Positions 3,029-62,034 of a stretch of 64,000 bases of DNA are shown here, one piece after another. The DNA lies in the NCBI GenBank assembly GCA_028718745.1, contig JAQULF010000001.1, positions 111,078 to 175,077 on the forward strand, in the 5' to 3' direction. This stretch comes from Patescibacteria group bacterium. Its GTDB lineage: Bacteria > Patescibacteriota > JACPGU01. The translations under genes and the position numbers were made by a program. The stretch's first letter is position 1. Every line of letters starts with the position of its first letter. The notes under the pieces are model-generated. The model was given only the letters and a program-made list of their open reading frames with translations, had not been told where the DNA came from and searched no databases.

Positions 3029-3090
3029 CCCGTAGGGGCGCAATTCATTGCGCCCGACAGGAAGGGCGCGATAAATCGACGCCCCTACAA
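3029..3090. repeat. GC-rich palindromic element (GTAGGGGCG...CGCCCCTAC termini, inner hairpin GGGCGCAA-TTCA-TTGCGCCC), intergenic hrcA-grpE
   Basis: cccGTAGGGGCGCaattcattGCGCCCgacaggaagggcgcgataaatcgaCGCCCCTACaaa; same terminal motif as the in-frame elements at 14493, 14986, 32077, 32427. Confidence 0.6.
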
Positions 3091-3106: not shown

Positions 3107-3580
3107 ATGGTAAAAAAACAACCCAAAATCAATATTGAAGAAATTTTACAAGAGCGCGACGCCAACCTCGCCGGTTGGAAACGATCGTTAGCCGACTTTG
3201 AAAATTTCAAGAAACAATTTGAGAAAGAAAAAGAAACCCTTATTCATTACATGAAAGCTGACGCGATATCAAAACTTTTACCCATCATGGCAAATTGGGA
3301 AGTCGCAATGAAAAACATTCCGGAAGACCAAAAAGACAGCGAATGGATCAAAGGAATCATGGCAATCAAAAACCAATTAGACGAATTCTTTCAAAAAGAA
3401 GGTTTAGAAAAAGTAAAAACAGTCGGCGAGAAATTCAATCCCAATATCCACGAAGCGATGCTGGAAGAAGAATCCGACCAACCCGACGGCACAATCCTTG
3501 AAGAATTCGAACCTGGATATCGGATCGGAGAAAGAGTTATCAAATATCCGAAAGTGAAAGTTAGCAAAAGGAGGAATTAA
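3107..3580 (+). CDS. grpE: nucleotide exchange factor GrpE
   Basis: Coiled-coil N-terminus plus C-terminal beta domain (…HEAMLEEESDQPDGTILEEFEPGYRIGERVIKYPKVKVS); position between hrcA and dnaK. Confidence 0.9.
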   Translation: MVKKQPKINIEEILQERDANLAGWKRSLADFENFKKQFEKEKETLIHYMKADAISKLLPIMANWEVAMKNIPEDQKDSEWIKGIMAIKNQLDEFFQKEGLEKVKTVGEKFNPNIHEAMLEEESDQPDGTILEEFEPGYRIGERVIKYPKVKVSKRRN

Positions 3581-4503: not shown

Positions 4504-6408
4504 ATGAGTAAAATTATCGGAATTGACCTTGGAACCACCAACTCAGCTGTTGCTGTAATGCGTGGAGGCAAGGCGGAAATTATCACCAACGCAGAAGGAA
4601 ATCGCACCACGCCTTCTATCGTTGCGGTTACCAAAACTGGTGAAAGATTAGTGGGGCAAGTTGCAAAAAGACAGGCCGTCACCAATAGTGACAACACTGT
4701 TTTTTCTGTAAAAAGATTTATCGGTCGCGCATACGGCGACAAAGAAACCCAGAAAGATATCAAAGCGATGCCTTACCAAATCGTGAAAGGCAAAAACGAC
4801 GCAGTAGAAGTAAAAATGGGCGACAAAGCTTATAGCGCTCCGGAAATCTCGGCGATGGTTCTTGGCAAATTAAAAGCTGACGCGGAAGCGTTTCTTGGCG
4901 AAAAAGTAACCGAAGCGGTCATTACCGTTCCGGCGTATTTTAACGATGCGCAAAGACAGGCAACCAAAGATGCGGGTAAAATCGCCGGATTGGATGTGAA
5001 AAGAATTATCAACGAACCGACCGCTGCCGCCCTAGCTTATGGTTTGGATAAGAAGAAAAATGAGCAAATCGCTGTTTACGATCTAGGCGGTGGAACATTT
5101 GATATTTCAATTTTGGAAATTGGAGATGGAGTATTTGAAGTGAAGAGTACTAATGGCGATACGCATCTTGGTGGTGATGATTTTGACCAAAAGATAATTG
5201 AATGGCTAACCGCAGAATTTAAGAAAAGCGAAGGAGTGGATTTATCCAAAGATAAAATGGCTTTGCAAAGATTAAAAGTTGAAGTGGAAAAAGCAAAACA
5301 CGAATTATCTTCTTCTATGGAAACCGATGTGAATATCCCATTTGTTACCGCTGACGAATCCGGACCAAAACATCTCAATATCAAATTGACTCGCGCGAAA
5401 CTGGAAGAATTGGTTGGCGACCTGATTGAAGCGACGATCAAACCATGTGAAAAAGCTTTGAAAGATGCTGGTTTGAAAGCCTCTGACATTGATGAAGTAA
5501 TCATGGTTGGCGGTATGACCAGAATGCCAAAAGTTGTTGAAACCGTAAAGAAATTCTTCGGCAAAGATCCGCATCAAGGCGTAAACCCTGACGAAGTGGT
5601 AGCTATCGGCGCTGCGATCCAAGGCGGAGTTCTGGGTGGAGATGTTAAAGATGTATTATTACTCGATGTAACTCCTCTATCACTTGGAATTGAAACCCTT
5701 GGTGGTGTATCCACAAAATTAATTGAAAGAAATACGACTGTTCCAACTAGCAAATCTCAAGTATTTTCAACTGCCGCTGACAATCAGCCATCGGTAGAAA
5801 TAAATATCTTGCAAGGTGAAAGAGAATTTGCCGCTGATAATAAATCTTTAGGCAGATTTATTTTGGAAGGATTATTGCCGGCGCCTCGCGGAGTTCCGCA
5901 AGTTGAAGTATCTTTTGATATTGATGCAAACGGAATTCTAAATGTGAAAGCGGTTGATAAAGGAACCGGTAAAGAACAGAAGATCACCATCACCGGAAGT
6001 TCCGGTTTAAGTAAGGAAGATGTTGAAAAAATGGCAAAGGATGCCGAGCTTCACGCCGAGGAAGATAAGAAAAAGAAAGAAACTATTGAGATAAAAAATA
6101 TGGCCGAAAATATGATCTATCAAACTGAAAAAACTATCCGAGATAACGCTGATAAGATCGATGAAGCTACTAAGAAAGATGTTGAAGAAAAAATCGAAGC
6201 GCTTAAGAAATTAAAAGATTCTGAAGATATCGAAGAGATTAAGAAGAAAACAGATGAGCTAATGCAAGCTGCGCAAAAAATCGGGGAACAGGTATATAAA
6301 GCTTCTCAAGAGCAGGCAAAGCCAGAAGGCGAACCGGCTACTAAAGAAAAGACCGAAAACAAAAAACCGGATGAGCCGGTTGAGGGAGAATACCAAGAAG
6401 GAAAATAG
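4504..6408 (+). CDS. dnaK: molecular chaperone DnaK (Hsp70)
   Basis: [36 protein letters not shown] and the rest are an unmistakable Hsp70. Confidence 0.97.
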
Positions 6409-9761: not shown

Positions 9762-9834
9762 TAGGCCCGGAGGGACTCGAACCCTCGACCCTCTGCTTAA
9801 AAGGCAGATGCTCTAACCAACTGAGCTACGGGCC
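9762..9834 (-). tRNA. tRNA-Lys (anticodon UUU)
   Basis: Minus strand reads AGGCCCGTAGCTCAGTTGGTTAGAGCATCTGCCTTTTAAGCAGAGGGTCGAGGGTTCGAGTCCCTCCGGGCCTA. 7-bp acceptor, D-arm GCTC/GAGC, anticodon stem TCTGC/GCAGA with loop CTTTTAA (anticodon TTT), T-arm GAGGG-TTCGAGT-CCCTC. Confidence 0.85.
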
Positions 9835-10043
9835 TTCGTCGCAGTTCGCTTCATGCTCTCCATAAAAATTTCTTTGAAATTTTTCTTACGAGTATTCCGC
9901 AACTGCTCCTCTTACGAAAAAATCCGATTACATATTTCGGTATAGATTTTTTCGTTTGCTTTTTGTTTTTTAATTTTATCACAAACCGTCTATATTTTCA
10001 AGAAAAAATAATATATAATTATTAAAATCACTAATCAAAAGTC

Positions 10044-14364: not shown

Positions 14365-15207
14365 TTATTTTCCTTTCGCCAGCACTATTCCCCAAACGCT
14401 TCTCGCCCCATTTAATTTTAATACTTTAGCGCACTCTTCCAAGGTTGTGCCGGTAGTAGTGATGTCGTCAACTAACAAAATATTTTTACCCCGTAGGGAA
14501 CAGCCATGGCTGTTCCTGATATTTGCATTATTCCCCACGAACACAAACACATCTTTCAAATTATTCAACCTTTGTTCTCGGTCCAATTCGGCTTGGGGAG
14601 TAGTATATTTTTTTCTAACCAAAATATGTTGGTTCAAAGCTCCTGCTTTGAACCTTAATGTACTTCTATACATTTTGATGATCTCCCTCGCCAAGATCTC
14701 CGCCTGATTAAACCCCCTCTGCCTCAATCTCTTTTTATGCAACGGCACCGAAATAACCAAATCGAATTCCGGAAAATCCGGAGGTCCGACCTGGGGGTAC
14801 TCCCACTGGTCGCACCTCGGGATTTTTGTGTTTTCTTGCTTTTTTGCTTTTTTGTTTTCTTGTCTTAACTTTCCCGCCATCATCTTCCCTAAAATATTTC
14901 CGATATCAAAAATGTAATTGTATTTAAAATGATGAATTACTTCCTTAAGAACTCCTTCTCCAAAATTAGCGCAAATGAAAATACCGTCTAGGGCGGGCGG
15001 GGAAACCCCGCCCCTACAAAAATGACAAAATTCACCGGCCTCACTCGGCCTCCGGCATTCCGGGCAAAAAGGCTGTTTAATAATGTCGATCGTCTTCAAA
15101 CATTCCCCGCAAATCCATTGCCCTTCTACCCCGCAACCCAGACAAGTACGAGGAAAGAGAAGATCAAAGACGAAGTTACGCGATAAAAAATAAAGTTTTT
15201 TCAGCAT
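14365..15207 (-). CDS. comF: ComF-family protein (N-terminal Zn-ribbon + phosphoribosyltransferase domain) carrying 2-3 in-frame palindromic element insertions
   Basis: CLGCGVEGQWICGECL...CPECRRP...CHFCRG zinc-ribbon and C-terminal ILLVDDITTTGTTLEECAKVL PRTase motif. Confidence 0.7.
   Translation of the reverse strand: MLKKLYFLSRNFVFDLLFPRTCLGCGVEGQWICGECLKTIDIIKQPFCPECRRPSEAGEFCHFCRGGVSPPALDGIFICANFGEGVLKEVIHHFKYNYIFDIGNILGKMMAGKLRQENKKAKKQENTKIPRCDQWEYPQVGPPDFPEFDLVISVPLHKKRLRQRGFNQAEILAREIIKMYRSTLRFKAGALNQHILVRKKYTTPQAELDREQRLNNLKDVFVFVGNNANIRNSHGCSLRGKNILLVDDITTTGTTLEECAKVLKLNGARSVWGIVLAKGK
14493..14516. repeat. GC-rich palindromic element GTAGGGAACAGCCATGGCTGTTCC inserted in frame in comF (encodes NSHGCS)
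   Basis: Perfect 20-bp palindrome GGAACAGCCATGGCTGTTCC preceded by ccGTAG; identical core at 32077-32104 inside the RT gene. Confidence 0.7.
14778..14822. repeat. degenerate GC-rich palindromic insertion in comF (arms CCGGAGGTCCGACC / GGTCGCACCTCGG)
   Basis: Imperfect ~20-nt inverted arms around a GGGGGTACTCCC core, encoding PRCDQWEYPQVGPPDFPE. Confidence 0.35.
14986..15017. repeat. GC-rich palindromic element GTCTAGGGCGGGCGGGGAAACCCCGCCCCTAC inserted in frame in comF (encodes RGGVSPPALDG)
   Basis: GGGCGGGG-AAA-CCCCGCCC perfect hairpin with GT(CT)AGGG / CCCCTAC-aaa termini, as in the 3029 element. Confidence 0.65.
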
Positions 15208-16235: not shown

Positions 16236-17078
16236 ATGCTAAATGAACGGAGTAAATTAGCAATCTTTGAGGAACAAAAGATAAGGCGCTTTTGGGATGA
16301 TAAGAGAGAAAAATGGTACTTCTCTGTTGTAGATGTTGTGGCTTCCTTAACTATCCAATCCGAACACAAAAAAGCACAAAGTTATTGGACAACATTAAAA
16401 AATAGGTTAAAAGAGGAGGGAAGCGAGGTCGTCACAAAATGTGACCAACTGAGAATGCAGGCAACAGACGGAAAATTTTATCCAACTGACGCAGCTGATA
16501 CCGAAACATTATTTCGTTTGATCCAATCAATTCCTTCTCCAAAAGCCGAACCTTTCAAACTTTGGTTGGCTCGCGTTGGATATGAAAGAGTAGAAGAAGT
16601 GGAAGATCCTGAATTGGCAATTCAAAGAGCGCTCCGAACTTATCTGCAAAAAGGTTATTCAAAAGAATGGGTTGATCTTCGCCTCAAAAGCATTGAAATC
16701 AGAAAGGATCTGACCAATGAATGGCTTGAGCGAGGAATTACCAAGAATCAAGAATATGCGATATTAACCGACGATATTACTTTCGCTTGGGCGGGAATGA
16801 GAACAAAAGATTATAAAAAATATAAAGATTTAAAAAGAGACAATCTTCGTGATAATATGACCAACCTTGAATTGGTTCTTAACATGTTAGCGGAAACCGC
16901 AACAACCGAAATTTCAAAAAGTAAAAAACCAAAAACTTTTAACGAAAATAGAGAAATCGCTCATCAAGGCGGATCGGTCGCGGGAAATGCAAGGAAAGAA
17001 ATAGAAATTAAATCCGGCCAAAAAGTTATCTCGCCAAAAAACGCGAAAACATTAGGGATTAGAAAAAAATTATCTTGA
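16236..17078 (+). CDS. DinD-like protein with N-terminal Bro-N/KilA-N-type domain (DNA-damage-inducible protein D family); paralog of 45170..46003
   Basis: IRRFWDDKREKWYFSVVDVVASL (Bro-N-like) and a C-terminal region alignable to E. coli DinD (…NLRDNMTNLELVLNMLAETATTEI…AGNARKEIEIKSGQKVIS). Confidence 0.65.
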   Translation: MLNERSKLAIFEEQKIRRFWDDKREKWYFSVVDVVASLTIQSEHKKAQSYWTTLKNRLKEEGSEVVTKCDQLRMQATDGKFYPTDAADTETLFRLIQSIPSPKAEPFKLWLARVGYERVEEVEDPELAIQRALRTYLQKGYSKEWVDLRLKSIEIRKDLTNEWLERGITKNQEYAILTDDITFAWAGMRTKDYKKYKDLKRDNLRDNMTNLELVLNMLAETATTEISKSKKPKTFNENREIAHQGGSVAGNARKEIEIKSGQKVISPKNAKTLGIRKKLS

Positions 17079-28742: not shown

Positions 28743-29132
28743 TTATGATAACATCTTTTTATTAGTAAATTTTATCAACGAATTAACTTCTCTTGGCAAT
28801 TGTTTTAACTGTGAAAAGATAAATAAATATTGTTCTTCCGATAGCAACCCTCTGATTTTTGCTTTTTCATTCCAGTCTAGCGATTCATAAATAGACCCAT
28901 AACTATAATTATAAAATTTAATCTTGTCTTTCTTGGTTTTTCTACCAAATCCTTCAGCGATATTAGCTGATATTGAATCAATTGCCCTAATAAACTGTTT
29001 TCCGACTGTATCTTTGGCCAAATAATCCCACTTAATCACTATATTCCAGACATAATTGGAAAGAGGGAGGGCTATTTTATAGGTATTAATATCATTTAAT
29101 TGTAAAAACTTTTTATTTGTATTTTCAATCAT
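28743..29132 (-). CDS. four-helix-bundle protein (TIGR02436-like, 23S rRNA IVS / Avd-like family), flanked by inverted AT-rich repeats
   Basis: …ISANIAEGFGRKTKKDKIKFYNYSYGSIYESL… motif of the four-helix-bundle family; 15-bp inverted repeat ATGAATAAAGGATTA overlaps both its stop (28730-28745) and start (29129-29166) codons. Confidence 0.65.
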   Translation of the reverse strand: MIENTNKKFLQLNDINTYKIALPLSNYVWNIVIKWDYLAKDTVGKQFIRAIDSISANIAEGFGRKTKKDKIKFYNYSYGSIYESLDWNEKAKIRGLLSEEQYLFIFSQLKQLPREVNSLIKFTNKKMLS

Positions 29133-31753: not shown

Positions 31754-32833
31754 CTAACTGCTACGACCCTTTTTGTCAATTAAATCTGATAACTCTTTTG
31801 TTAATTTCCAGCCCTCACAGTGTTTTAAAACCCCAAAATAAGACTGTCGAATTTGCTCAAATGATTCTTGGCTAATAACTTTTTGATCTAATAGTCTCTT
31901 TTTTGCTCTCAACTTCTTAAACATTCTTTTCTTGGTCTTCGTTCGGAGAATTTTGTGATACGGAAAAACCACATATCCCAAAAAATCAATTCCTTGATTT
32001 GGTTTGCGGATAATGGTTTTGTCAGGATGTAATTGCAACTTAAGGTTGTCTTTTATAAAATCGCCGACCGCATCCTGTAGGGAACAGCCATGGCTGTTCC
32101 CTACCGAATACAATATCACAAAATCATCACAATACCGGGCATACGATTTAACCTTTAAGCGATGTTTTACAAACTGATCTAATTCGTTCAAGTAGATATT
32201 GGCAAAAAGTTGCGAGGTAAGATTGCCCAGCGGAATCCCCGTACTCTCTCTCTCTCTCTCGTTTTGTTTTGTGTTAAACGAATCGATTGTTTCTTTAACT
32301 AACCACAAAACATTCTCATCTTTGATTTTCTTTTTAATTAAATCAAACAATATCTCATGGTCAACGGACGCGAAAAATTTTTTGATGTCTAATTTAATGA
32401 TGACACGATAATATTTTACTTCCCCTGTAGAGACACGCCATGGCGTGTCTCTACGAAGAAAACTCTGCAATCGATCTACTGCCTTATGTGTTCCTTTTTC
32501 GTTTCTGCAGGAATATGAATCATGGATAAATGTTTTGTCGAAGATAGGATAGAGGATTCTATAAATAGCGTGATGAACTATGCGATCTTTCACAGTAGCT
32601 TTGTGAATGTGCCGTCTTTTTGGATCATTGATAAAAAATGAGGTATAATGGCTATGCTTATAGGTTTTAGATTTAAGCTCCTCGTGAAGATTAAAGAGAT
32701 TATCTTCAAGATGTAGCTCAAATTCTTGGACATCTTTCTTTTTTCTTTTCCCTTTTTTAAATTCATTCCAACTACAAAATAAATTATCAATACTAATAAT
32801 TTGGGAGAATAAATTATCATGGAGAATTTTCAT
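31754..32833 (-). CDS. diversity-generating retroelement (DGR) reverse transcriptase, with two in-frame palindromic element insertions; probable start at Met36 of the track ORF (32831-32833)
   Basis: RT motifs RRHIHKATVKDRIVHHAIYRIL (dom 1-2), YYRVIIKLDIKKFFASVDH (dom 3), GIPLGNLTSQLFANIYLNELD (dom 4, DGR-specific [IVL]GxxxSQ instead of QGxxxSP), YARYCDDFVIL (YxDD); adjacent avd, TR and VR. Confidence 0.85.
   Translation of the reverse strand: MKILHDNLFSQIISIDNLFCSWNEFKKGKRKKKDVQEFELHLEDNLFNLHEELKSKTYKHSHYTSFFINDPKRRHIHKATVKDRIVHHAIYRILYPIFDKTFIHDSYSCRNEKGTHKAVDRLQSFLRRDTPWRVSTGEVKYYRVIIKLDIKKFFASVDHEILFDLIKKKIKDENVLWLVKETIDSFNTKQNERERESTGIPLGNLTSQLFANIYLNELDQFVKHRLKVKSYARYCDDFVILYSVGNSHGCSLQDAVGDFIKDNLKLQLHPDKTIIRKPNQGIDFLGYVVFPYHKILRTKTKKRMFKKLRAKKRLLDQKVISQESFEQIRQSYFGVLKHCEGWKLTKELSDLIDKKGRSS
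32077..32104. repeat. GC-rich palindromic element GTAGGGAACAGCCATGGCTGTTCCCTAC inserted in frame in the RT gene (encodes …VGNSHGCSL…)
   Basis: Perfect 28-bp palindrome; core identical to the comF copy at 14493. Confidence 0.7.
32427..32454. repeat. GC-rich palindromic element GTAGAGACACGCCATGGCGTGTCTCTAC inserted in frame in the RT gene (encodes …DTPWRVSTGE…)
   Basis: Perfect 28-bp palindrome with the same GTAG / CTAC termini and central CCATGG. Confidence 0.7.
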
Positions 32834-33172
32834 AGTCCGTCTATTATTCAGAAGGTTTATGATTTCTATGCTGAACTTTATTTGGTGGTAGAAAAGATGC
32901 CCAAGAAAGACAAATATGCCCTGGGCGAGAAACTGCAAAAAATCACTTTGGATTTTCTGGAATTGCTAATCACTGCCAGCAATAAATCAAAAGATAAAAA
33001 ATATCCCTTCATGGAATTAGCTAGTACAAAGCTTGAAGTTCTGAAAATTACTATCCGACTCTCACATGAAGTTAAAGCGATACCAACGAGCAAATATCAT
33101 TCTCTGGAAGAAAGACTTCAGGAAATTGGTAGGATGCTTGGGGGATGGATAAACTCAATAAAAACACCTTGA
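32819..33172 (+). CDS. avd: DGR accessory variability determinant (Avd), four-helix-bundle protein; encoded divergently to the RT, with start codons overlapping by 15 nt
   Basis: 117 aa; C-terminus EERLQEIGRMLGGWINSIKTP parallels Bordetella phage bAvd …AEVGRILGSWIARVNRK; N-terminal IIQKVYDFYAELYLVVEKMPKKDKYALGEKL parallels bAvd helix 1-2. Confidence 0.7.
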   Translation: MENFHSPSIIQKVYDFYAELYLVVEKMPKKDKYALGEKLQKITLDFLELLITASNKSKDKKYPFMELASTKLEVLKITIRLSHEVKAIPTSKYHSLEERLQEIGRMLGGWINSIKTP

Positions 33173-33203
33173 TTGGTGTTTTTATTTTTTGCTTAGAGAC
33201 TAT

Positions 33204-33310
33204 CTCGACGGCGGCACCGATGTTGTCATTGGCATTCTCGGGATTCCAGTTGTCGTTGACATTGAGGCTGTCGTTGTTGAAGTTGACATTCAGCGGACGC
33301 TCGTCGTAAA
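33204..33310 (-). repeat. DGR template repeat (TR), 107 bp
   Basis: Aligns to VR 33663-33766; all 13 substitutions are TR T (plus strand, = A on the coding minus strand) versus VR A/G/C; one 3-nt in-frame indel. Conceptual translation of TR gives an Asn(AAY)-rich peptide YDERPLNVNFNNDSLNVNDNWNPENANDNIGAAVE versus VR YDERPLHVIFY-DSLDVYDYWHPENAHGLIGAAVE. Confidence 0.85.
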
Positions 33311-33577: not shown

Positions 33578-33604
33578 GGGGCAAACGCTTTCGCGTTTGC
33601 CCCA
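33578..33604 (-). terminator. strong hairpin GGGGCAAACGC-gaaa-GCGTTTGCCCC + T-tract immediately downstream of the VR/target gene (terminator; possibly the DGR homing-associated stem-loop)
   Basis: Minus strand: ...ttcttGGGGCAAACGCgaaaGCGTTTGCCCCtttctttttgcc. Confidence 0.7.
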
Positions 33605-33635: not shown

Positions 33636-34604
33636 TCAGGCGGCAAGTTCCAGAGGAACTCCCTCGACGGCGGCACCGATGAGGCCATGGGCATTCTCGG
33701 GATGCCAGTAGTCGTAGACATCGAGGCTGTCGTAGAAGATGACATGCAGCGGACGCTCGTCGTAAATGGTGCTGGTGCGAGCCCATGTTGATGTTCTGAA
33801 CTTCCGGTAGTTGATGGCGAGCAGGAGCATCATGAGCGCGTCGGAGGTAACCGAAGAATTTATCAGGCCGTGTTCCTTTGTAACTTTCTGTTGATTTTCC
33901 CAGCGCTTCTTTGTGGTAAAAGCGGGGAAATCAACATAACTGATGCGCCAGCGCTCCGAGTCTGTGGCCGGTACATGCGGCCAGCCCTCAATGCCCTGTT
34001 TGATGAACCAGTTGCTGTAGTCAATGCCCGGGCGTATGATTCCGGGACCGAGACCGTCATGCTGGACTCCGAACCAGTTGTAAAGATTGACCAGCGATGT
34101 CTTATGCCTCGCTACACCGAAAAGCTCCAATTGAAGTACGGGAATGCAGTTCCACTCCGGTCTTTTGCAAAGCTCCACCAGCTTTCGGAGCAGCTCGGGC
34201 GTCCATGCCTCGGGCAGAGGAACTTCGGGAACCCAGCCCTTATCGAGATTCAGCGGATTTTCGCCGTTGGGACCCGTCATCGCTTTCTCCCATTCCGCCG
34301 CGCCGACGACTAGAAGCCCGTCGATTGCTCGGTAAGGCGCGAGCGGATCGAGCAGGTCGTCGAGGTTGATTTCGTCGCGAGTTATCGCTTCGAAAAATCG
34401 GGCGAGAAGATCGGGTTCGATGTCGACGCTATCGGGAAGAAGAACAGCTCTTCCTTTCGTGGTTTTTACAACCCCTGACCTGAAAAATTCCTGGATGGCC
34501 TTTTTGTCTTTGAGGCGTTCGGCCATCTGCGCACAGGTTACCTTACCGTCACGGATTGTGGTCAACAGTTCTATGTCTTGACCGGACGTTATCGGCTTAC
34601 TCAT
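33636..34604 (-). CDS. DGR target (variable) protein; GC-rich ORF whose C-terminal ~35 residues are the variable region, presumably in a C-type-lectin/FGE-like fold
   Basis: C-terminus …TSTIYDERPLHVIFYDSLDVYDYWHPENAHGLIGAAVEGVPLELAA overlaps VR (33663-33766); VR differs from TR only at TR-adenine positions. Confidence 0.8.
   Translation of the reverse strand: MSKPITSGQDIELLTTIRDGKVTCAQMAERLKDKKAIQEFFRSGVVKTTKGRAVLLPDSVDIEPDLLARFFEAITRDEINLDDLLDPLAPYRAIDGLLVVGAAEWEKAMTGPNGENPLNLDKGWVPEVPLPEAWTPELLRKLVELCKRPEWNCIPVLQLELFGVARHKTSLVNLYNWFGVQHDGLGPGIIRPGIDYSNWFIKQGIEGWPHVPATDSERWRISYVDFPAFTTKKRWENQQKVTKEHGLINSSVTSDALMMLLLAINYRKFRTSTWARTSTIYDERPLHVIFYDSLDVYDYWHPENAHGLIGAAVEGVPLELAA
33663..33766 (-). 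repeat. DGR variable repeat (VR), 104 bp, at the 3' end of the target gene
   Basis: See TR; the GC-rich 3' boundary (coding strand …GGGAGTTCCTCTGGAACTTGCCGCC TGA) is the likely IMH. Confidence 0.85.
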
Positions 34605-45169: not shown

Positions 45170-46003
45170 CTAAACTAATTTCTTTTTATCTTTGTTGGGT
45201 AAAAAATTATCCCTTGAAACAATTAGCCTTCCGGTTTTTCTCTCAATTTGTTTTCTTGCTGTTCCTGCAATTTGGCCACCGGCTCTGGCGTCATCTTTTA
45301 ATTTAGGGAGACCTTGAGACTCGCGAGTTCGATGTATTTCGGTTGTAGTTTTTTCTCCAAGCATGGTTAAAATAAGTTCAAGATCGTTCATATGGTCGCG
45401 AAGATTTTCTTTCTTTAATTCTTTCAATTTCTTATAATCAGATGGGATCAAACCAAAAGTAGCTTTTGATATTTCGGCTGTTAGTATCTCATAATCTTTC
45501 TGGTTTTCAGCTCCACGATTTTTCCATTCATCGGTTAGTTCTTCGCGAATCACAATTCCGCGTATTCTTTTTTCAATCCAATTTTCAGGATAGCCTTTTA
45601 GTTTGTACAGCATTCTCGTTCGCTTGGTTGCCAGTTCAGGATCTTCGATTTCTTGGATTCTTTCATAGCCAACACGAGCCAACCATCGTTTAAAGGGTTC
45701 AGCTTTTGATGAAGGAATAGATTGAACAACACGAAGAACCCCTTCGGTGTTGGCGCAATCTGTCTCACGCATTTTCCCATCTTCGGCAATCATTTTCAAC
45801 TGTTCCCAAAATGGGAACGGTTGAGACATCTCTCTATCTCTCTCCTTCATCTTCGCCCAATATGTTTTTGGTTGAGGGCTATCGGTTAAGATTTTTATAA
45901 CATCCAAAATAGAAAACCACCATTCTTGTTTGTGGATGGTTTTTCGAACTTTTTCGCCACGGAAAATGGCGATTTGGTTATTTGTGTTTAGATTGTCGAT
46001 CAT
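45170..46003 (-). CDS. DinD-like / Bro-N domain protein, paralog of 16236..17078
   Basis: …KAEPFKRWLARVGYERIQEIEDPELA…NLRDHMNDLELILTMLGEKTTTEI…AGTARKQIERKTGRLIVS, clearly alignable with 16236..17078. Confidence 0.65.
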   Translation of the reverse strand: MIDNLNTNNQIAIFRGEKVRKTIHKQEWWFSILDVIKILTDSPQPKTYWAKMKERDREMSQPFPFWEQLKMIAEDGKMRETDCANTEGVLRVVQSIPSSKAEPFKRWLARVGYERIQEIEDPELATKRTRMLYKLKGYPENWIEKRIRGIVIREELTDEWKNRGAENQKDYEILTAEISKATFGLIPSDYKKLKELKKENLRDHMNDLELILTMLGEKTTTEIHRTRESQGLPKLKDDARAGGQIAGTARKQIERKTGRLIVSRDNFLPNKDKKKLV

Positions 46004-57938: not shown

Positions 57939-58313
57939 ATGGAAAATGACAAAGAAAAATTTAAAAAGGAATTCAAAAAAAGATTATATAACTTCGTACT
58001 TCGTTTAATAAATTATATCAATAAACTTACAAGGTCGCAGTCGAATGATGTTATAGGAAAACAACTATTAAGAAGCGGCACAAGTATATTAGCAAACTTT
58101 ATAGAAGCAAATTCAGCCAGCAGTAAAAAGGATTTTATAAATTTTTTTAATCACAGTTTAAAGTCTGCAAATGAATCTAAGGTTTGGCTAACATTATTTA
58201 GGGATACAAATAACTCAGGAAAAGAAGAAAATGAGTTTCTAATCAATGAACTTTGTGAAATAGCTAATATTTTAGCTTCAAGCATATTAACCTTAAAGGG
58301 GAAAAAGAAGTAA
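57939..58313 (+). CDS. four-helix-bundle protein (TIGR02436-like / Avd-like family), third member in this window
   Basis: …LLRSGTSILANFIEANSASSKKDFINFFNHSLKSANESKVWLTL… matches the four-helix-bundle family signature. Confidence 0.6.
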   Translation: MENDKEKFKKEFKKRLYNFVLRLINYINKLTRSQSNDVIGKQLLRSGTSILANFIEANSASSKKDFINFFNHSLKSANESKVWLTLFRDTNNSGKEENEFLINELCEIANILASSILTLKGKKK

Positions 58314-59958: not shown

Positions 59959-62034
59959 ATGCCAGATCCACAAGACAAAAAACTAGATAATATCCAGCCC
60001 CCCAAAGGTTCCTACTTTGATTTGACTAACAAAGATGCGGTTCTTCAGCCGGATAAGGCTAAGGATTTGGGCGCTATTACTTCCGGTTTTGGTGTTAAGA
60101 AGGAAATAGGATCAACACCACTAAAAGTAGAGACGAATGGCCATTCGTCTCTACAGGAGAAACCAAAAGAGACTAAATCATCCGGAGGTTTCTTTTCCTT
60201 CGGACCAAAGATGACTAAAGAAGAATTGGAAAAACAAAAAGCCGAGGAAAGAAAAAAATCAGAAGCCATTAAAAGAGAAGAAGAGGCTAAAAAAACTTAT
60301 GAAATGGGGTTGGCTTCTATTCGCGACCTGATCGCCCCTTCTTCAGTACAAATTACGCCAAATTATCTAGTTTTAAACGATCGCTTTGTTCGCACTCTTT
60401 TTATTTTCAATTACCCCCGCTTTATTTTTCCAAACTGGTTATCGCCGCTGATTAATATGGATATGACTCTCGATATCGGCATGTTTATTTATCCCAAGGA
60501 AAATAAAGGCGTTCTCGACACTTTAAGAAAAAGATCGGGGCAAGTGGAGTCGGCTCTCAATATAGAAGCGCAAAAAGGACTGGTTCGAAATCCGGAATTG
60601 GAAACCGCTTTGCAAGACATTGAGGAATTAAGAGAAAGATTGGCCAGAGGAGAAGAGAGATTATTTCAGTTGTCTCTATATATAACTCTTCAAGCTAAGG
60701 ATCTGGACGAGCTGGATCTAGCTACTAAAAAAGTAGAATCAACCCTTGGAGGTTCTTTGATTTATACCAAAAGAGCCGGATTTCAGATGGATCAAGGCTT
60801 TCGCTCCACTCTTCCTTTGGGATCTGACTTTTTGGATATTAGAAGAAATATGAACACAGGTTCGCTTTCCACTACTTTCCCATTTACCTCAATGGATTTA
60901 ACTTCCAATCAGGGAATTATGTACGGTATCAATCGCCATAATAATGGCTTGATTATTTTTGATCGATTTGAATTGGAAAACTATAATTCAGTTGTTTTTG
61001 CTAAGGCCGGTGCCGGCAAGTCATACGCGGTAAAATTAGAAATTTTACGCTATATGATGTTTGGTACAGATATTATAGTGATTGATCCGGAAAATGAATA
61101 TAAAAATCTTTGCAAAGTGGTTGGCGGGTCATATCTATCCATGAGCTTATCTTCAGATGATAGAATCAATCCTTTTGACTTACCGCCGCTTCCCGACGAT
61201 GCTACGCTCGATATGGGTGAAGATAATTTAAGAAGCACTATTATTACTCAAAAGGGTTTAATGAATTTACTTTTGGGGAAACTTGATCCGGAAGAAGATT
61301 CTTTGATTGAAAAGGCATTGCTTAAAGCTTATGAATTGAAAGGGATTACCAACGATCCAGCTACCCAAAAGGCCAACTTTCCCTTGATGGCCGATGTTTA
61401 CAATGCATTATCGGGAATGCCGAACAGCAATTCATTGATGAAAAGAATGGAAAAATATGTAACCGGAACTTTTTCCAGCATATTTAATAAGCCAACTAAC
61501 ATTGATTTAGATAAGGGCTTTGTTGTTTTTAACATTCGCGATCTGGAAACCTCTTTTCGTCCAATTGCCATGTATATGGTGCTGGATTTTATTTGGTCAA
61601 AGATAAGAAAAGAGTTGCGAAAAAGAATGCTTATCGTCGATGAGGCGTGGCTTATGATGGAATATGAAGATGCGGCCAAATTCATCTATTCAATTGCCAA
61701 AAGAGCTAGAAAGTATTATCTAGGACTAACTACTATAACGCAGGATGTGGAAGACTTTTTATCCTCAAAATACGGCCGCGCTATCGTAACCAACTCTTCA
61801 TTGCAATTGCTTCTCAAACAATCTCCGGCCTCAATTGAATCAGTGGGTAAAACTTTTAATCTAACTCAAGGAGAGCGAGCCTTGCTTCTGGAATCCGGTG
61901 TGGGTGAGGGACTTTTCTTTGCCGGTGTCAATCATGTAGCTATCAAAGTTATCGCTTCTTATACGGAGGATCAGATCGTGACTACCTCTCCAAAGCAGAT
62001 TCAGGAGCTTGAAAAAGCGCAGGGAGAGGTATAG
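59959..62034 (+). CDS. virB4: VirB4/TraC/PrgJ-family type IV secretion ATPase with a ~120-aa low-complexity N-terminal extension
   Basis: Walker A FAKAGAGKSYAVKL, Walker B MLIVDEAWLMM, conserved VIDPENEY and N-terminal VirB4 domain (…IAPSSVQITPNYLVLNDRFVRTLFIFNYPRFIFPNWLSPLINMDMTLDI…). Confidence 0.85.
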   Translation: MPDPQDKKLDNIQPPKGSYFDLTNKDAVLQPDKAKDLGAITSGFGVKKEIGSTPLKVETNGHSSLQEKPKETKSSGGFFSFGPKMTKEELEKQKAEERKKSEAIKREEEAKKTYEMGLASIRDLIAPSSVQITPNYLVLNDRFVRTLFIFNYPRFIFPNWLSPLINMDMTLDIGMFIYPKENKGVLDTLRKRSGQVESALNIEAQKGLVRNPELETALQDIEELRERLARGEERLFQLSLYITLQAKDLDELDLATKKVESTLGGSLIYTKRAGFQMDQGFRSTLPLGSDFLDIRRNMNTGSLSTTFPFTSMDLTSNQGIMYGINRHNNGLIIFDRFELENYNSVVFAKAGAGKSYAVKLEILRYMMFGTDIIVIDPENEYKNLCKVVGGSYLSMSLSSDDRINPFDLPPLPDDATLDMGEDNLRSTIITQKGLMNLLLGKLDPEEDSLIEKALLKAYELKGITNDPATQKANFPLMADVYNALSGMPNSNSLMKRMEKYVTGTFSSIFNKPTNIDLDKGFVVFNIRDLETSFRPIAMYMVLDFIWSKIRKELRKRMLIVDEAWLMMEYEDAAKFIYSIAKRARKYYLGLTTITQDVEDFLSSKYGRAIVTNSSLQLLLKQSPASIESVGKTFNLTQGERALLLESGVGEGLFFAGVNHVAIKVIASYTEDQIVTTSPKQIQELEKAQGEV

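Follow-up and report, generated by a model that had tools for sequence, protein, structure and literature searches.

Short GTAG-tagged palindromes read in frame within genes of a patescibacterial genome: probable members of the GTAG-tagged REP class

A 64,000-nucleotide stretch of the genome of a Patescibacteria group bacterium (assembly GCA_028718745.1, contig JAQULF010000001.1, positions 111,078 to 175,077; here called the window) carries a dispersed family of short GC-rich palindromic elements with the tetranucleotide GTAG at the foot of a hairpin. Most of them are read in frame within open reading frames (ORFs) coding for a ComF family protein, the reverse transcriptase (RT) of a diversity-generating retroelement (DGR), and a VirB4-like ATPase. 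We consider it probable that these elements belong to the GTAG-tagged class of repetitive extragenic palindromic (REP) sequences, i.e., that they are miniature, nonautonomous elements copied or exchanged between tagged sites. A first-pass annotation of the window, made from the sequence alone, had drawn attention to the family and had likened it to the Rickettsia palindromic elements (RPEs).

Two pattern scans of the window define the family. The pattern GTAGRG-N10-40-CYCTAC gave 3 matches against 0.06 expected, and 3 or more were reached in 0 of the 100 shuffles that served as a control; a scan for GTAG immediately preceding a hairpin whose stem has 7 bp or more gave 6 genuine loci, where 0.47 would be expected, and in all six the tag abuts the stem (offset 0; Table 1). 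The basic unit is GTAG plus a GC-rich self-complementary body of 20 bp, 24 nt in total (or the body plus CTAC), with stems of 8 to 10 bp (14 bp if paired tags are counted) and loops of 0 to 4 nt. The GC content of the elements is 50 to 78% versus 39.5% for the whole window, a background that had earlier been put in the mid-30s, and their folding as single-stranded DNA gives z scores of -2.4 to -7.3 relative to shuffled controls. In the units starting at 3032, 14493, and 14995, the tag is unpaired and stands at one end, whereas three perfect 28-bp palindromes of the form GTAGRG-N16-CYCTAC, two in the RT gene and one in the VirB4-like gene, have GTAG and CTAC at both ends, paired with each other. 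These three 28-mers are loop-less and consist of Watson-Crick pairs throughout, features that argue for a constraint at the level of DNA. The six loci are scattered over the 64 kb, and the 20-bp core GGAACAGCCATGGCTGTTCC is identical in one of the RT copies (32077-32104) and a ComF copy (14497-14516).

The first-pass annotation was right about a dispersed family, about an identical core in two of its copies, and about the two perfect 28-bp palindromes of the RT gene at 32077-32104 and 32427-32454. Its list lacked the further perfect copy at 60127-60154. What it took for a perfect palindrome at 14986-15017 is a single-tagged minus-strand unit at 14995-15017; its intergenic copy between hrcA and grpE is present and proves to be a dimer of inverted units (3032-3055 and 3064-3088); and its degenerate comF copy at 14778-14822 aligns instead with a second palindrome family, described below. 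An Rfam search of the whole window at gathering thresholds returned a tRNA at 9762-9835 only, and no Rfam family for the palindromes. A reading of the GTAG elements as intrinsic terminators was rejected because neither orientation of the hairpins is followed by a T-run.

TABLE 1 Palindromic elements of the window and the genes that contain them
Feature	Position	Strand	Sequence context
Head-to-head dimer, REPIN-like, of two separate hairpins: GTAG-GGGCGCAATTCATTGCGCCC (3032-3055, +), 8-nt spacer, GGGCGCGATAAATCGACGCCC-CTAC (3064-3088, -)	3032..3088		Intergenic, hrcA-grpE; z = -4.4
Host gene, ComF family, double zinc ribbon plus phosphoribosyltransferase domain	14365..15207	-	
Single-tagged 24-nt unit, GTAG + GGAACAGCCATGGCTGTTCC	14493..14516	+	In frame in minus-strand ComF, RNSHGCSL, aa 231-238
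Spacer plus degenerate tag CCCCAC (GTGGGG on the gene strand)	14517..14538	+	Codon-level comparison with L002, L210, L208, L209
Hairpin without GTAG tag, GGTTCAAAGC-TCCT-GCTTTGAACC	14631..14654		In frame in ComF, LRFKAGALNQ, aa 184-193; identical in L208 1680-1703
Decayed second-family doublet, AGGTYCRACC..GGGG..CCCC..GGTYGRACCT	14778..14822		In frame in ComF, CDQWEYPQVGPPDF, aa 132-145
Single-tagged unit, GTAG + GGGCGGGG-TTT-CCCCGCCC, 8-bp stem, 3-nt loop	14995..15017	-	In frame in ComF, zinc-ribbon turn, RGGVSPPA, aa 65-72
Host gene, DGR reverse transcriptase, 359 aa	31754..32833	-	
Perfect palindrome, both ends tagged, GTAG-GGAACAGCCATGGCTGTTCC-CTAC = GTAGGGAACAGCCATGGCTGTTCCCTAC	32077..32104		In frame in DGR RT, VGNSHGCSL, aa 244-252; z = -6.3
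Perfect palindrome GTAGAGACACGCCATGGCGTGTCTCTAC	32427..32454		In frame in DGR RT, RRDTPWRVST, aa 127-136; z = -7.3
Host gene, VirB4/TraC-like ATPase, 691 aa	59959..62034	+	
Perfect palindrome GTAGAGACGAATGGCCATTCGTCTCTAC	60127..60154		In frame in variable N-terminal region of VirB4-like ATPase, VETNGHSSL; z = -7.0

Five of the six GTAG loci lie inside ORFs and in frame, in a window whose coding fraction is 0.885. One of the three frames within GTAG holds the stop codon TAG, and the copies in genes occupy only the other two, in which the tag reads as GTA-GGN (V-G) or as xGT-AGR (x-R). As the first-pass annotation had it, the reading frame passes through the elements in the RT and ComF ORFs, as it also does in the VirB4-like ORF, the RT ORF being uninterrupted through both of its palindromes; the accompanying statement that element length is a multiple of 3 holds for the 24-nt combination of GTAG and a 20-bp body (or body and CTAC) and fails for the 28-bp palindromes. 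In AlphaFold2 models of ComF and RT (mean predicted local distance difference test [pLDDT] scores of 82 and 81, respectively), with secondary structure assigned by DSSP, the palindrome-encoded peptides are predicted, all with lowered confidence, to lie in coil or, in the case of RT 244-252, at a strand-helix turn, and the earlier placement of the peptides in loops thus finds support. RT 127-136 falls in the region of a coil (129-141, with pLDDT below 50 at 132-140) flanked by helix 114-128 on one side and, on the other, by the strand that leads to the catalytic Asp, while RT 244-252 begins where strand 237-244 ends, runs through a short coil (245-248), and enters helix 249-264, with a block pLDDT of 63. 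The peptides of ComF at 65-72, 132-145, 184-193, and 231-238 are all modeled as coil; pLDDT drops below 50 at 134-143 and at 227-234, the latter segment overlapping only the N-terminal half of the 231-238 peptide, and the block pLDDT of 184-193 is 57.

The RT and ComF proteins are 100% identical to proteins encoded on a 209-kb contig of a Patescibacteria (CPR) metagenome-assembled genome. Comparison of the RT with its homologues (an alignment of 30) revealed that those at 55 to 62% identity are without either palindrome-encoded peptide; relative to them, the RT of the window shows a net gain of some 1 aa at 32077 and of 6 to 8 aa at 32427. Its closest orthologue, P0002 from the locus that we number L001 (other loci are numbered likewise), shares 68% amino acid and 74% nucleotide identity with the RT of the window. 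It has perfect 28-bp palindromes at the same two codon positions, in the same frames and with the same GTAGGG...CCCTAC ends, which differ inside from those of the window (GTAGGGGCGTTCAATTGAACGCCCCTAC and GTAGGGGACGCACATGTGCGTCCCCTAC). Half-site identity between the palindromes of the window and of L001 is 8/14 and 10/14, not above the gene-wide figure, and 14 of 14 pairs are intact in all four palindromes. We estimate that independent mutation of the arms at the divergence of window and L001 would leave several mismatches per element. The perfect pairing of all four in spite of that divergence therefore suggests either that the symmetry of the arms is maintained or that new copies take their place. 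Both RT palindromes of the window also occur in the Logan contig L127, which comes from run SRR22315506, the apparent source of this genome, and is accordingly a re-assembly and not an independent observation.

A richer set of site states is found in ComF. The site directly preceding the phosphoribosyltransferase (PRTase) motif is occupied in most relatives: it is empty in L209, holds a decayed relic (GTGGGGGCATATTGCGATGTGCCAATA) in L211 and perfect 28-mers in L003 and L208, and in L002 and L210 is filled by in-frame head-to-head heterodimers of the form GTAG-body-spacer-body-CTAC. The window has the right-hand unit (14493-14516) plus a GTGGGG remnant, i.e., half a dimer, and this right-hand unit is identical across 32 nt between the window and L002, whose ComF proteins are just 63% identical. 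The adjoining segment 14517-14538 is either a leftover of the left-hand dimer unit or an unfilled target. At the second site (14995-15017), in the zinc ribbon, the GTAG tag shares nucleotides with the conserved Cys-Arg codons, and the site measures 24 nt in the window versus 15 nt in relatives, a net gain of 3 aa; it is empty in L002, L003, L209, and L210, and L211 has a related unit with its tag on the other side. In L208, the zinc-ribbon site (~1340-1375) shows inward-facing tags, CCCTAC-GGGTGATCACCC-GCAGGG, the reverse of the GTAG...CTAC form, and encodes the peptide HPTGDHPQGD. All told, the ComF of this lineage contains four separate palindromic inserts. For the VirB4 copy, no empty site could be aligned, the N-terminal region being unalignable with homologues, even with a relative of 75% identity.

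As judged from these sequence comparisons, the peptides are lineage specific and repeat derived, with the elements partly overwriting native sequence. The proposal that they are lineage-specific insertions is accordingly supported by their absence from the RT homologues and by the empty ComF site of L209 and the decayed relic of L211, but they are not clean insertions.

Elements of this kind are also found outside the window. The body GGAACAGCCATGGCTGTTCC is present in 14 stretches of JGI metagenome contigs, 7 of which are AT rich (33 to 39% GC); in all seven of these, GTAG or CTAC adjoins the core (GTAC in L218), and one contig of 414 kb has the core three times. The pattern GTAGGGGCG-N10-CGCCCCTAC is matched by 111 stretches from IMG/VR contigs of 36 to 73% GC, where we estimate that about 1 would be expected by chance. 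Among 157 matches to GTAGRG-N16-CYCTAC in the IMG/VR loci and L001 to L004, 89 are perfectly palindromic and a further 54 are so but for one mismatched pair, and the single-tagged units in the same set have a modal length of 24 nt, with the position opposite the tag often reading NTAC. The GTAG palindrome architecture is hence widespread well beyond the Candidate Phyla Radiation (CPR); within the CPR, the GTAGGG type seems to be restricted to this lineage.

A short GC-rich hairpin with GTAG at its foot, together with frequent inverted dimers, characterizes the GTAG-tagged REP superfamily (Di Nocera, De Gregorio & Rocco 2013, PMC3733652), and a tetranucleotide guide 5' of the hairpin foot characterizes REPs as such (PMC6006769). 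The elements of the window share with this superfamily the position of GTAG at the foot of the stem-loop, units of 20 to 40 bp (for which stems of 6 to 13 bp and very short loops are typical), inverted head-to-head dimers, the existence of several sequence variants, and in-frame copies, and they differ from it in their AT-rich patescibacterial host, in the intragenic location of five of six loci, and in their low density. The superfamily is a better family assignment than the RPEs. REPs that lie inside genes and are translated in frame have been reported for Opitutus terrae, Thauera, and the Rickettsia conorii elements RPE-4 and RPE-6; intragenic copies are a minority in the superfamily, and RPE-4 and RPE-6 were equated in the same study with CGTC-tagged REPs (PMC3733652). 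Because intragenic in-frame copies have thus already been published for the superfamily, this behavior is not new. The host genes of the intragenic GTAG units here (ComF, reverse transcriptase, and VirB4-like ATPase; three genes) are all concerned with nucleic acid handling or DNA transfer, which echoes the published remark that many intragenic REPs lie in DNA-handling genes, including those for replication and repair (PMC3733652). Our literature searches on palindromes, REPs, or RAYTs (REP-associated tyrosine transposases) in the CPR or Patescibacteria found nothing relevant; GTAG-tagged REPs are apparently undescribed in Patescibacteria, in line with the novelty that the first-pass annotation had claimed for this kind of genome.

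The comparison with RPEs made in that annotation captures one aspect of the elements, i.e., their persistence in frame within genes: both are selfish palindromes of small AT-rich genomes that are maintained in frame in protein genes at surface-exposed positions. The elements studied here are set apart by their size (24 to 28 bp, with dimers of 57 to 73 bp) and by their GTAG tag. Ogata and colleagues are reported to have described the Rickettsia elements, in 2000, as being about 100 to 150 bp long; RPEs are not known from outside Rickettsia and are presumably unrelated in sequence to the elements of the window. The IS200/IS605 elements with their TnpA Y1 HUH transposases, which insert next to a specific tetranucleotide, offer a mechanistic model: they too use a hairpin and an adjacent tetranucleotide as the recognition and cleavage signal and leave no target-site duplication, although the elements here encode nothing and are far smaller, and their transposition is conjectural. 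Another parallel is offered by the mobile GC clusters of yeast mitochondrial DNA, short GC-rich palindromes that have invaded a compact AT-rich genome and are sometimes coding and translated; these, however, belong to an organelle, have other end motifs, and come with no Y1 transposase.

REPs are thought to be mobilized by RAYTs, which are Y1 HUH transposases, as in the REP/REPIN-RAYT systems of Escherichia and Pseudomonas (Nunvar 2010, PMC2817692; Bertels & Rainey 2011, PMC3116915), and a link to RAYTs has been described for the GTAG-tagged superfamily too (PMC3733652). RAYT-like genes are abundant in Patescibacteria: there were 2052 protein matches, and the genes occupy at least 575 loci in contigs restricted to one genome per species, the best-scoring 80 coming mostly from Patescibacteria/CPR metagenome-assembled genomes; two such genes derive from the same sequencing run as this genome. 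The CPR proteins conserve the HUH motif (NHYHL) and the catalytic Tyr (YIHLNP). In the syntenic relative L002 and in L211, a RAYT-like gene stands between HSP20 and amidase genes, a spot that is empty in the syntenic region of the window. The L002 protein has 213 aa and matches Pfam Y1_Tnp with 33.8 bits (gathering threshold of 23) and the NCBIfam model REP_Tyr_transpos (NF047646) with an E value of 9e-14, below the curated cutoff.

Across Patescibacteria, these RAYT-like genes typically have a lineage-specific hairpin, of the xxGAGGTTCAACCTCxx type, on either flank; often, such a hairpin also interrupts the gene in frame, at a single variable spot that is conserved. The arrangement of a RAYT-like gene with flanking hairpins in the relatives is similar in layout to a REPtron, from which it differs in that its hairpins are without the GTAG tag. 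The hairpins are part of a second palindrome family, which takes the form of monomer hairpins and of doublets of 40 to 54 bp and of which we found copies in the window (14778-14822), in L001 (3165-3205), in L002 (4877-4899, 5089-5132, and 5582-5604), and in L128 to L207. The copy in the window constitutes an insertion relative to all ComF homologues and aligns with the intact doublet within the L001 RT (3165-3205) and with the palindrome inside the L002 RAYT-like gene (5089-5132). The lineage thus has an enzyme of the right kind and two palindrome families; in the window and in the relatives compared, no RAYT flanked by GTAG units was found, a difference from the REPIN-RAYT systems.

We infer a course of events in which copies would spread, or be exchanged between sites, as single-strand hairpins. 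The likeliest agent would be a HUH/Y1 transposase of the RAYT or IS200 type acting at the tags, the alternative being recombination or template switching between copies. With ~89% of the genome coding, most landing sites would be genic, and a copy would survive there only if its net length were a multiple of three (as the 24-nt unit allows), if it avoided the TAG frame, and if it fell in a tolerant loop, after which it would be translated as a loop peptide. Since the body on its own is already perfectly palindromic, a head-to-head dimer could collapse to a 28-bp GTAG-body-CTAC that reads alike on both strands; an origin of the 28-mers as collapsed head-to-head homodimers seems attractive because it would fit the presence of dimers and 28-mers at the same ComF site, and a unit copied beside an existing tag would be another route to them. 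A tagged site, once made, might then be reused, its bodies being replaced or homogenized, which could produce the different perfect palindromes seen in the same loops of orthologues.

Several observations weigh against an assignment to mobile GTAG-tagged REPs. Classical REPs are extragenic and have a tag that is unpaired at one end; here, three loop-less 28-mers are tagged at both ends, and the extragenic preference expected of the superfamily is not seen, one locus of six being intergenic. A tblastn search of the window with 26 CPR RAYT-like queries found no Y1 transposase. In close relatives and in the same sequencing run as this genome (L002, L211, L212, and L227), the RAYT-like genes are flanked by hairpins without the GTAG tag, and in 1.1 Mb around the 80 genes, no GTAG units were found beside CPR RAYT-like genes, whose flanks hold the different hairpin family. 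GTAGGG-type units are essentially absent from these 1.1 Mb of 80 other, mostly CPR, loci; the ~14 GTAG-unit matches there are mostly AT rich and at chance level. We found no target-site duplication, direct repeat, or target consensus at the 28-mers, whether those of the window or those of relatives, so that the target-site preference for which the first-pass annotation had proposed a check did not emerge, and with no direct repeat beside any 28-mer, the elements do not resemble miniature inverted-repeat transposable elements, which are recognized by terminal inverted repeats plus a target-site duplication. In most cases the net gain in length falls short of the length of the element, and conserved codons, such as the ComF Cys-Arg pair, are overlapped by elements; simple cut-and-paste insertion therefore does not account for them. 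Finally, the copy number is that of 64 kb.

In a more far-reaching reading, GTAG/CTAC-delimited sites in genes would be fixed docking sites at which a Y1 transposase or hairpin-templated repair repeatedly swaps the bodies or makes the two arms symmetrical; we regard this as rather unlikely. If true, it would amount to a cassette exchange that rewrites protein loops of the CPR, including those of DGR RTs, with the frame kept by means of the 24-nt unit. An explanation without mobility is that the hairpins evolved in place and were selected as a cis-acting structure, in mRNA processing or stability or as a site for a dimeric DNA-binding protein, with a sequence that covaries. The two RT orthologues, at 74% nucleotide identity, have palindromes at the same codon positions and in the same frame whose interiors differ with every pair kept, as covariation would have it, and the pre-PRTase site of ComF is filled in most relatives. 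Yet the same tag and an identical 20-bp core recur in unrelated genes and contigs, and the tag is present in an intergenic spacer as well; empty, decayed, monomer, and dimer states of the sites exist; other RT homologues are without palindromes; and the lack of G-U pairs and of a loop would be odd for an RNA element, for which neither a following T-run nor an Rfam match was seen. Evolution in place is thus unlikely.

The perfection of the palindromes and the seeming overwriting of native sequence (with a net gain of ~1 aa at 32077 and of 3 aa in the zinc ribbon of ComF) are also what template-switch (quasi-palindrome) mutation at replication would produce, by overwriting a stretch with the reverse complement of its neighbor and with neither an element family nor a transposase being needed. 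Such a process leaves unaccounted for the shared GTAGRG/CYCTAC ends, the core common to RT, ComF, and foreign contigs, and the head-to-head dimers, and where the comparison was possible, in a few cases, no similarity was seen between either arm and the native sequence of orthologues at the homologous position, which makes this explanation very unlikely. That the family reflects chance similarity, an assembly artifact, or ancestral coding sequence might be argued from the mere handful of copies in 64 kb, but is scarcely credible in view of the shuffle controls, of related elements that recur in assemblies made separately from other samples (JGI, ENA, and Logan), and of the intact host ORFs. We therefore retain membership in the GTAG-tagged REP class as the preferred reading of the elements.

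If this reading is correct, it extends both GTAG-tagged REPs and hairpin-flanked RAYT-like transposases to Patescibacteria, and it shows how REP-type elements can exist in a genome with almost no intergenic space, namely, housed in protein loops. Short GC-rich insert peptides of the form VG...SL, R....PT, and the like in CPR proteins should then be recognized as repeat derived, which matters for the alignment, modeling, and phylogenetic trees of these proteins and for the interpretation of DGR RT and ComF variants. The different perfect palindromes in the same loops of orthologues would further provide a small, tractable system for studying how REPs are copied or exchanged.

The retroelement that contains two of the palindromes deserves separate description. 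Its template repeat (TR; 33199-33274) and variable repeat (VR; 33658-33733) are 87% identical in a gapless match of 76 nt, and their differences all lie at plus-strand T, i.e., coding-strand A, the expected adenine-specific pattern, which indicates that the RT belongs to a genuine DGR. Within the RT ORF, a (CT)8.5 tract (32244-32260) encodes ERERES; its counterpart in L001 (~3143-3160) is a (GA)n tract of similar length, and other RT homologues are without it. Dinucleotide tracts are classic slipped-strand switches, and this one could switch the RT on and off. The usual gene order in DGRs is a codirectional avd-TR-RT; here, an accessory gene (32819-33172, + strand) is divergent from the RT, with ~15 bp of overlap at the RT start, a layout that recurs in L001 (2249-2611 and 2597-3727), where the accessory gene matches the Pfam family bAvd. 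A GC-rich hairpin, GGGGCAAACGC-TTTC-GCGTTTGCCCC, lies at 33578-33603, directly 3' of the stop codon of the target gene and the VR, between VR and TR, and may be a terminator or a hairpin/cruciform element such as is known downstream of the VR in other DGRs. Outside the DGR, the window codes for two further four-helix-bundle proteins (28743-29132 and 57939-58313), judged by eye to be of the 23S-rRNA-IVP/Avd type, and for two proteins with Bro-N domains (16236-17078 and 45170-46003).

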